A stretch of 10,213 nt of DNA. It comes from a virus. Its lineage: Duplodnaviria > Heunggongvirae > Uroviricota > Caudoviricetes. Below are positions 2,749 through 5,605 of this stretch, piece by piece; the first letter of the stretch is position 1; every line of letters begins with the position of its first letter. The position numbers and the translations under genes were made by a program. Below the pieces are notes generated by a model, which saw only the letters and a list, made by a program, of their open reading frames with translations, did no database searches and was not told the DNA's origin. The stretch lies in IMG/VR virus record IMGVR_UViG_2700988907_000001. The stretch is one strand, 5' to 3'.

Positions 2749-2985
2749 TTGATACATATTAAAGACACTTACAGCAATCTTATTAATTCAATTTTACGGC
2801 TATTTAAAATGATTATGTGTCTTGTTTATCTTATACAAAAGTCTCTTACAGCAAACTTTATTAAACATTTTTAAAAGATATAATACTATGTTGAGACTTG
2901 TTTATATTTTGAAAAGGACGTACAGCAAATTATTATTAAAAAAACATGGGAACGTTTTTCAAATTGTCCTTTGATACATATTAAA
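2749..2985 (+). repeat. Perfect 15-bp direct repeat TTGATACATATTAAA (2749-2763 and 2971-2985) bracketing the array
   Basis: Read directly; the two copies are 222 bp apart. Confidence 0.9.
2762..2972 (+). ncRNA. Tandem array of three structured ~60-nt units (period 74-77 nt) with invariant TACAGCAA; putative small RNAs
   Basis: Unit 1 AAGACAC(2762-2768)/GTGTCTT(2817-2823); unit 2 AAGTCTC(2839-2845)/GAGACTT(2893-2899); unit 3 AAAGGAC(2913-2919)/GTCCTTT(2966-2972). TACAGCAA at 2770, 2847 and 2921, each followed within 2-4 nt by TTATTAA. Confidence 0.8.
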
Positions 2986-2987
2986 TC

Positions 2988-3020
2988 TTTGTATGCTTAT
3001 ACAAACATCTCTCTTTTTCT
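2988..3020 (+). terminator. Possible weak terminator or processing hairpin after the array
   Basis: TTTGTAT-GCTT-ATACAAA (2988-3005) followed by pyrimidine-rich CATCTCTCTTTTTCT. The stem is AT-rich, so termination is uncertain. Confidence 0.3.
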
Positions 3021-3064
3021 GACCTTAGAGGGGTGTTCGTATAAGTATATAAAGAAAGGTCAGA
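3006..3064 (+). promoter_or_regulatory. RBS-sequestering structure (hairpin or H-type pseudoknot) before the NUMOD4-HNH gene
   Basis: TCTGACCTT(3018-3026) pairs with AAGGTCAGA(3056-3064), which contains the SD. CATCTCTCT(3006-3014) pairs with AGAGGGGTG(3027-3035). Confidence 0.6.
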
Positions 3065-3070
3065 TTAAAA

Positions 3071-3637
3071 ATGAAAGAAATTTGGAAAGATATTCCTAAT
3101 TATGAAGGATATTATCAAATTAGTAGTTTAGGAAGAGTTAAAAGTTTAGAAAGACATATTGTTTATAAAGATGGCAGAGAAAGAACTTATCCTAGTGTAA
3201 TAATTTCTAATAGAGTCGGTACCAATGGTATGGAATTATGTACTTTGACTAAAAACAATAGAAAAAAGAATATAGAAATTCATAGAATGGTTTCTATTGT
3301 TTTTATAGGAGATTGTCCTAAAGGGTATGATATATGTCATATTGATGGTAATTGCTTAAATAACAATATTAATAATTTAAAATATGACACTCGTTCAGAA
3401 AATAGAATAGATAATTATAGATATGGCGGAAAAGCAAGTACAGGAAAATTAAATATAAAACAAGTATTAGAAATAAGACATAAATATAAACATGAAAAAT
3501 ATACTTATAAACAATTATCTGATATTTATGATATTGGGATAACGCAAATAGGTAGAATAATAAGAAGAGAAGCATATACTTGGTTAAATGATAATGGAGA
3601 AATAGAAAAATCTTTAACAGAAATTAAATCTTGTTAA
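3071..3637 (+). CDS. Free-standing NUMOD4-HNH homing endonuclease with C-terminal HTH
   Basis: NUMOD4 start EIWKDIPNYEGYYQISSLGRVKS, HNH core IHRMV...ICHIDGNCLNNNINNL, C-terminal GKLNIKQVLEIR...YKQLSDIYDIGITQIGRIIR. Confidence 0.9.
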   Translation: MKEIWKDIPNYEGYYQISSLGRVKSLERHIVYKDGRERTYPSVIISNRVGTNGMELCTLTKNNRKKNIEIHRMVSIVFIGDCPKGYDICHIDGNCLNNNINNLKYDTRSENRIDNYRYGGKASTGKLNIKQVLEIRHKYKHEKYTYKQLSDIYDIGITQIGRIIRREAYTWLNDNGEIEKSLTEIKSC

Positions 3638-5063: not shown

Positions 5064-5137
5064 CAGAATGTAGTTCAATTTGGTAGAATACCACATTTGG
5101 GATGTGGTGGTTGTTGGTTCAAATCCAGCCATTCTGA
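5064..5137 (+). tRNA. tRNA-Pro (anticodon UGG), CCA not encoded
   Basis: Acceptor CAGAATG/CATTCTG, D arm GTTC-AATTTGGTA-GAAT, anticodon arm CCACA-TTTGGGA-TGTGG (TGG at 5098-5100), T arm GTTGG-TTCAAAT-CCAGC. C1-G72 and A73 fit Pro identity. Confidence 0.95.
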
Positions 5138-5164: not shown

Positions 5165-5605
5165 GAAACAGTCGATTGGTTTTGTCATTTACCCAAGTGT
5201 TATCATAAGACAAAAATGTCAACTGTCTTTTTAGAGTAGTCACTGTTTCACAGTATAAAATGATAACTTTTTTAGATGGCTACATATACATAATAAAATG
5301 TGGATTTCATGTCCACCTATCCTAACTCTGAGACTGTGAGATAGTAACTTAAACTAGCTATTTAAGTGAATGGAGAGATAGGTTAAAAACTAGATTCTCA
5401 ATGTGGCTTATTGAGTGCTTTGTTGCTATAGAAAAATAGTAATGAAAGAACAAAGGGTAGTTTTGAATGGTTTGAGCCCTTTATACATATATGTCTGCTC
5501 TGCGGAGTATTGAGAGTGAAATCTTTATGGAAGAGGAAACTCGAACTCACTCTAGTTCTTTTAAGTAGAACAAAGGCATTGGTTTGAATCCAATGTAAGA
5601 GTGAG
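5165..5605 (+). ncRNA. Large structured ncRNA candidate (GOLLD/ROOL-type giant phage RNA or a new class)
   Basis: About 440 nt with no ORF in the track, directly after a tRNA, with many helices: GAAACAGT/ACTGTTTC, TTTTGTC/GACAAAA, GTTATCAT/ATGATAAC, TCACAGT/ACTGTGA, ACCTATC/GATAGGT, ACTTAAA/TTTAAGT, CTCAAT/ATTGAG, CTTTGTT/AACAAAG, a GAG-GAAA-CTC tetraloop and CTCACTCT/AGAGTGAG. Family not verified. Confidence 0.65.

Follow-up and report, generated by a model that had tools for sequence, protein, structure and literature searches.

Y RNAs tether Ro60 to PNPase. They carry a conserved Ro60-binding helix described by Chen et al. (2014, PMC4201824), who sought the relative YrlA only beside genes annotated as TROVE and report a motif different from the one below. 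A phage-borne system with which our locus can be compared is the Ro60-Yrl pair of Thermus phage phiLo (PMC12135203).

The second group of RNAs relevant here is the Class I RNAs of Dictyostelium. These are 42–65 nt long (typically about 60 nt), have their ends joined by a 6-bp helix that shows compensatory change, and present an 11-nt single-stranded motif, CCUUACAGCAA, after the 5′ arm (Kjellin et al. 2021, PMC7919456). Their genes are scattered in a eukaryotic genome, each with its own DUSE promoter element about 60 nt upstream, and their published direct binder is the RRM protein Rnp1A/CIBP, which is not Ro60-like (PMC7919456). A pull-down with DdR-21 recovered GuaB, NdkC, CIBP/Rnp1A and DDB_G0281243, the last a protein of unassigned function with orthologues in all Dictyostelia (2020 preprint of PMC7919456). 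Beyond Dictyostelia, the search by Kjellin et al. turned up no Class I RNAs, but it took in only one bacterium (PMC7919456).

At least 708 sequenced phages, and many bacteria besides, encode proteins with the domains DUF2828 and DUF7788, whose annotation goes no further than "RNA-binding protein" or "hypothetical". An RNA partner would turn these proteins into a testable particle. Here we describe a family of small RNAs linked to their genes, starting from an array of three hairpin units in a 10,213-nt stretch of viral DNA (IMG/VR record IMGVR_UViG_2700988907_000001; the whole stretch analysed is called the window).

Results

The window belongs to a 6ec-group siphovirus (genus Sextaecvirus) of Staphylococcus epidermidis, whose packaging and head region it represents. 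Genes for an HNH endonuclease and the small terminase are followed by a gene encoding a 502-aa DUF2828 and DUF7788 protein (1234–2742, + strand; hereafter the DUF2828 gene) and, starting 20 nt after its stop codon on the same strand, by the array (2762–2972). Further downstream lie a long hairpin (2986–3055), a NUMOD4/HNH homing endonuclease gene (3071–3637), a metallophosphoesterase gene (labelled "exonuclease" by PHROGs), tRNA-Pro (5064–5137; found by ARAGORN and Rfam) and, in this order, genes for a GIY-YIG endonuclease, the large terminase, the portal and the prohead protease. The gap between tRNA-Pro and the GIY-YIG gene (5165–5605) has no Rfam match; a metatranscriptome contig covers 5333–5561 of it.

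All three units lie on the + strand, at periods of 77 and 74 nt. Unit 1 (2762–2823, 62 nt) is closed by AAGACAC (2762–2768) and GTGTCTT (2817–2823), unit 2 (2839–2899, 61 nt) by AAGTCTC (2839–2845) and GAGACTT (2893–2899), and unit 3 (2913–2972, 60 nt) by AAAGGAC (2913–2919) and GTCCTTT (2966–2972). The elements listed in a preliminary description of the locus can all be read directly from the DNA: perfect 7-bp closing stems that differ in sequence between units; TACAGCAA exactly one base 3′ of the 5′ arm in each (2770–2777, 2847–2854 and 2921–2928); TTATTAA 2, 3 and 4 nt after it in units 1, 2 and 3; inner hairpins with the pairings ATTTTA/TAAAAT, AACAT/ATGTT and AAAAAC/GTTTTT, respectively; and GTTTAT after units 1 and 2 (2824–2829 and 2900–2905). 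Each 3′ arm is followed by an unpaired G (2824, 2900 and 2973).

The closing helices of all three units appear in the minimum-free-energy folds. The single-sequence fold energies are ordinary (z = −0.2, −2.0 and −0.95 against shuffles for the three units), as the sequence is about 75% A+T; one sequence alone would thus not prove a structure, and significance has to come from comparison. The units were rejected as tRNA genes or pseudogenes, ARAGORN and Rfam giving only the tRNA-Pro in the window, and none of the three interiors has the shape of an anticodon arm or contains a tRNA-like domain (T arm, acceptor-like hairpin, D arm).

We compared the array with other DUF2828 loci. An initial stem scan was too permissive, accepting a 7-bp "stem" at 30% of the motif occurrences on the wrong strand, and we therefore relied on covariance models. 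Model R1, built from 43 short units, gave 138 matches at E ≤ 1 over 745 kb, all on the gene strand and none on the opposite one. In an independent set of 80 bacterial-genome DUF2828 loci, none of which had been used in building R1, it found 133 matches at E ≤ 0.01; these were spread over 67 loci and, without exception, lay on the gene strand as before. In the reverse direction, model R2, built from bacterial-genome sequences only, recovered units 1, 2 and 3 of the window with 48.2 bits (E 1.6e-9), 42.9 bits (E 2.7e-8) and 36.1 bits (E 9.8e-7), the next-best score anywhere else in the window being 9.8 bits. The covariance-model search that the preliminary description had proposed thus yields homologues, and covariation, in phage and bacterial-genome loci alike, and the array is no local oddity: its units are members of a widespread RNA family.

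The members share what we call the handle: a closing helix of 7 bp (7–8 bp), 1–2 nt, the single-stranded motif ACAGCAA, and an unpaired G after the 3′ arm (present in 132 of the 133 independent matches), around a variable interior. The octamer, first described as invariant, is so in its last seven letters, since ACAGCAA is fixed family-wide but the T before it varies. TTATTAA and the inner hairpins are conserved in close relatives only. Among the 133 independent homologues every one of the seven pairs covaries and 99.9% of the cells are paired, compared with 31–54% in controls in which the partner column was slid; cells with a double change number 191 versus 48 in shuffles, and the helix-preserving changes include G-U pairs. 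Because the model itself produced these alignments, they are biased towards its structure, and related genomes are not independent; the slid-column controls and the strand bias are free of the alignment bias. Seven covarying pairs around a motif fixed across phyla bear out the earlier proposal of selection on an RNA helix and a motif, which a protein would read.

The same data bear on whether the repeats act as DNA, for instance as a packaging or recombination site, or as the target of a homing endonuclease, between the terminase genes. The array does lie between terS and terL, beside an inserted HNH gene, and is bracketed by a 15-nt direct repeat, TTGATACATATTAAA (+ strand, 2749–2763 and 2971–2985). 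A DNA site, however, would not explain why matches of both sets together fall 271 to 0 on the gene strand, or why the helix is kept by compensatory changes that extend to G-U pairs. Elsewhere the family goes with the DUF2828 gene and not with terminase, and phages 6ec and BE02 lack the HNH gene yet carry the array. Contradicted by strand bias and covariation, a role at the DNA level is scarcely credible.

The direct repeat is kept in relatives and is possibly a shared processing context, or a trace of array growth. Homology to phages 6ec and BE02 stops at about 2982, inside its second copy, where the HNH cassette is inserted; compared with 6ec, BE02, S-CoN_Ph10 and Ph16, the insertion comprises 2983–3637 (long hairpin and NUMOD4/HNH gene). 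In these four phages the second TTGATACATAT repeat abuts the ribosome-binding site of the metallophosphoesterase gene. The inserted 70-nt hairpin before the HNH gene is near-perfect (window 2986–3066; −34.3 kcal/mol, z = −11), and its loop CTGACCTT (3019–3026) is exactly complementary to AAGGTCAG (3056–3063) in the ribosome-binding region of that gene (start at 3071). Judged from this complementarity, the two could pair as a pseudoknot, through which translation of the homing endonuclease would be controlled.

The RNA is tied to the DUF2828 gene. The handle was found beside a DUF2828/DUF7788 gene in 55 of 80 IMG/VR loci; roughly a fifth to a third of gene-bearing loci have no RNA match, which we count against our best explanation. 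A near-identical array is present in the close relatives CF9, BE02 and the S-CoN phages, and units also lie beside the DUF2828 gene of unrelated phages: seven in Bacillus phage vB_BcoS-136, three each in Listeria phage LP-064, Mycobacterium phage Bazzle and E. coli phage wV8, and two in Campylobacter phage CP30A. Staphylococcus myovirus Alsa_2 has a variant motif, ACAGCYAA. When whole genomes were searched (wV8, LP-064 and Bazzle, a 2.8-Mb staphylococcal genome and a 54-kb virus record), matches were found only adjoining the DUF2828 gene. Across 81 genomes around the nearest one available, the gene was present in 13 and the RNA in 12, all 12 with the gene on the same contig and strand, 1–2 kb away; the 68 genomes without the gene had no RNA, and the sole genome with the gene but without the RNA had its gene on a very short contig. 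As these genomes are mutually related, the co-occurrence (12 of 13 gene-bearing genomes) is descriptive and carries no statistical test. Together with the covariation, the results establish that the RNAs form a conserved family, covarying and confined to one strand, with physical linkage to the gene of a protein that has, as described below, a Ro60-like fold.

Several of these loci have further features. In S-CoN_Ph17 (L002, 1495–3290) the DUF2828 gene is annotated in two pieces and units 2 and 3 have lost the 5′ arm and ACAGCAA through deletions, unit 1 being intact; gene and RNAs may have decayed together here, or the assembly may be of low quality. In LP-064 (L008), the three ACAGCAA units are preceded at about 650 nt by a match to ROOL RNA (962–1513; 87.4 bits, just short of the threshold of 99.1), which is itself flanked by tRNA genes; the DUF2828 gene is followed after 1.3 kb by one for the RtcB ligase.

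We asked how the array of the window could be transcribed. A small 6-bp hairpin (2732–2751, + strand) holds the stop codon of the DUF2828 gene in its loop. No U-tract follows it on the + strand, and a pattern scan flags it solely as a terminator-like site of the minus strand; read-through of transcription from the gene into the array is therefore likely. Pattern and consensus scans of the window found no promoter or terminator specific to the array: promoter-like sites were fewer than in shuffles, and none was positioned to drive it. One contig of a transcriptome library spans 2587–2804 and one metatranscriptome contig spans 2616–2766; both are assembled contigs, from which we draw no verdict on transcription, ends or processing. 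In Alsa_2 (L006, 4060–4440), three variant-motif units (ACAGCCAA/ACAGCTAA) lie downstream of the DUF2828 gene, and an extended −10 promoter-like site (TTGCAA ... TGTTATAAT) and a hairpin lie upstream of the units, which suggests that an array can have its own promoter.

An array that begins 20 nt after a stop codon with no terminator between might act in cis on the operon transcript, as protein-binding, processing or stability elements in the 3′ UTR of the DUF2828 mRNA, by which, for example, the protein regulates its own message or downstream genes. The relatives at first sight point the same way, since in most of them the units precede the gene by no more than about 300 nt, as a leader would (in the independent set, the median distance to its start is 274 nt). 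The position is not constant, however: depending on the phage, units are upstream of the gene or downstream of it, and in Bacillus and Felix O1-like phages they are kilobases away, among tRNA genes. They also come in one to seven copies with different interiors, some holding whole tRNA-like modules, which fits stand-alone RNA genes better. We thus regard action in cis as unlikely.

The interiors fall into two kinds. Short forms of the family, such as the three units of the window, are 50–70 nt long; long forms, of 90–130 nt, hold a tRNA-like module within the same handle, mostly in the permuted order known from YrlA (T arm, acceptor-like hairpin, D arm). The long form at 3406–3505 of locus L153 aligns end to end with Rfam YrlA (RF02553; 43.8 bits, E 8e-9, threshold 69), its closing helix on the YrlA terminal helix and ACAGCAA at the YrlA Ro-binding region, with the positions of the Ro-binding helix unmatched. 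Even the best long-form relative misses the YrlA gathering score (69 bits), and YrlA has no match in the window at E ≤ 10. Among 118 short units from other phages, 28 have an interior resembling an anticodon arm (stem of at least 4 bp, 7-nt loop YU-NNN-R-N), and ten of these show UUU. The 7-nt loop CTTTTAA, which has the shape of the anticodon loop of tRNA-Lys(UUU), occurs on different stems in many short units of unrelated viral contigs (L018 3890, L023 3874, L025 3816, L027 3903, L069 646, L012 3887 and others).

Such interiors would suit RNAs that work independently of the DUF2828 protein. A host factor, for example a tRNA-processing or tRNA-modifying enzyme, would then read the handle, the interiors would be decoys or mimics for host nucleases that cleave tRNA, and the linkage to the gene would mean no more than that both serve a common pathway. 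Besides the anticodon-like loops, the interleaving of units with tRNA genes speaks for this, as does the closing helix with its unpaired G, which resembles an acceptor stem with a discriminator base. On the other hand, phages of Firmicutes, Actinobacteria, Proteobacteria and Campylobacterota have different hosts and yet an identical handle, the only neighbour that stays constant is the DUF2828 gene of the phage itself, and the three interiors of the window are unlike anticodon arms. Reading by a host factor alone is hence improbable. The likeness to a tRNA acceptor stem, drawn in the preliminary description, is partly apt: the 7-bp helix followed by a conserved unpaired G agrees with it, and relatives do enclose tRNA-like modules.

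We analysed the protein encoded upstream of the array. It matches Pfam PF11443 and PF25043 and belongs to PHROG 850, "RNA-binding protein". Its AlphaFold model (pLDDT 86.9) has as its top 13 PDB fold matches Ro60, Rsr or phage Ro60 in every case, at TM scores of 0.36–0.59 (most 0.5–0.6). These include frog, human and Deinococcus Ro60 and the Ro60 of Thermus phage phiLo; the matches to Ro60 chains run over the full length (about 500 residues) at 10–17% identity. Among Swiss-Prot AlphaFold models the matches are Ro60, telomerase p80 and TEP1, which make up the TROVE group, and proteins named DUF7788 dominate the fold matches in the AlphaFold DB. Both parts of a Ro60/TROVE protein are present in the model, the ring of helical repeats and a vWA domain with a MIDAS (DxSxS...T...D), whose residues D293, S295, S297, T358 and D390 are invariant (alignment A3). 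Pfam TROVE does not match the protein, and a profile of 30 homologues found no Ro60 in the PDB. According to the predicted structure, the DUF2828/DUF7788 protein is related to Ro60 by fold only; it is the presumed partner of the RNAs.

Scans of the units against Rfam with cmscan at permissive thresholds gave no family at its gathering score, so the earlier statement that the array belongs to no named RNA family holds. Rfam 15 does not contain the family; the below-threshold likenesses are to RF01414, the Class I RNAs, on the units, and to YrlA in relatives. On the array no Rfam family scores higher than RF01414, and no other one reaches an E below 1 there. RF01414 scores 22.1 bits on unit 1 and 22.9 bits on unit 2, short of its gathering score of 41.5, and the same scans do not report unit 3; it also matches one unit of the Listeria phage. 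In the cmscan alignment 10 of 11 motif positions align, units 1 and 2 reading C-UUACAGCAA (C-UUACAGCAA-UUA) and unit 3 C-GUACAGCAA.

Discussion

The array is probably a set of three tandem genes for non-coding RNAs of about 60 nt, partners of the Ro60-like DUF2828/DUF7788 protein in a minimal Y-RNA-like particle. It is most likely at the handle that the RNAs are bound by the protein whose gene ends 20 nt upstream. Protein and RNAs would form a particle analogous to Ro60 with Y RNAs: the array would be co-transcribed with the gene in the late operon and then cut into single units, and the variable interior would present something to a third party. We infer release from the late transcript because there is no terminator between gene and array and because a conserved G and A/U-rich spacers flank the units.

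During infection the particle likely serves to handle, repair or protect RNA, and tRNA in particular. We propose this role because the family is found within tRNA arrays and beside RtcB in other phages. More speculatively, the anticodon-like interiors and the tRNA and RtcB neighbours could mean that tRNAs are repaired, or that the units act as decoys against defences that cut tRNA. The RNAs of relatives, interleaved with tRNA genes, tRNA-like or anticodon-arm-like inside and near RtcB, suggest that tRNAs are surveyed, repaired or protected from such host defences.

The comparison with Dictyostelium concerns the handle. Array units (60–62 nt) and Class I RNAs share their length and a short helix that joins the ends, of 7–8 bp in the family versus 6 in Class I. 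The motif after the 5′ arm is CUUACAGCAA in units 1 and 2, compared with CCUUACAGCAA in Dictyostelium. As to the putative ends, AAG opens Class I RNAs, units 1 and 2 and 95 of the 133 independent matches, and units 1 and 2 would end in C-U-U-G-U, with one extra U relative to the CUGU of Class I. The interior is variable in both. The likeness is too detailed to ignore, the handle being near-identical to the signature of RNAs reported as unique to social amoebae. What differs is the context: in place of a DUSE element and a dictyostelid genome we find a Staphylococcus phage with units 74–77 nt apart in one operon. As the Rfam threshold is missed and the promoter context is different, we do not file the units as Class I RNAs. 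It is conceivable, though on present evidence doubtful, that the stem-ACAGCAA RNAs of phages and bacteria and the Class I RNAs are one family, in which Class I RNAs would be Y-RNA-like partners of a Ro60-like protein of the DUF2828/DUF7788 type, spread by gene transfer among bacterivorous amoebae, phages and bacteria. DDB_G0281243 would be a candidate for the Ro60-like partner. Swiss-Prot AlphaFold models include no Dictyostelium homologue of DUF2828, a result that applies to those models and not to dictyostelids at large. Were it one family, the 20-year-old Class I RNAs would gain a testable biochemical role.

The closest parallel is to Ro60 and its Y RNAs. As there, a ring-shaped protein of helical repeats with a vWA domain is encoded within a few hundred nucleotides of small RNA genes on the same strand (in the window, an array 20 nt after a Ro60-type gene), the RNAs often come in several copies, and their ends are paired in a terminal helix. 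tRNA genes and RtcB are near by in some phages, as with Ro60 systems. Unlike YrlA, the units of the window are only 60–62 nt long, with simple interiors and without a tRNA-like domain; in this they are similar to YrlB, and the Salmonella pair of YrlA (tRNA-like) and YrlB (short) closely parallels the long and short forms described here. Unlike Y RNAs, they have a 7-bp helix and ACAGCAA in place of a long bulged Ro-binding helix and a GNCGAA-type motif, so that the mode of binding cannot simply be copied from Ro60. The family was missed earlier because Chen et al. (2014) looked only beside TROVE-annotated genes, and with that different motif. An RNA with UACAGCAA is not described in the papers on DUF2828/DUF7788, Ro-like phage proteins and YrlA that we covered, a body of literature that leaves out most subscription journals. 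With neither an Rfam 15 entry nor a description found there, the stem-ACAGCAA RNAs are best classed as an unreported variant of the Ro60/Y-RNA kind, and the particle they would form with the DUF2828/DUF7788 protein as a second, much smaller branch of the Ro60/Y-RNA system.
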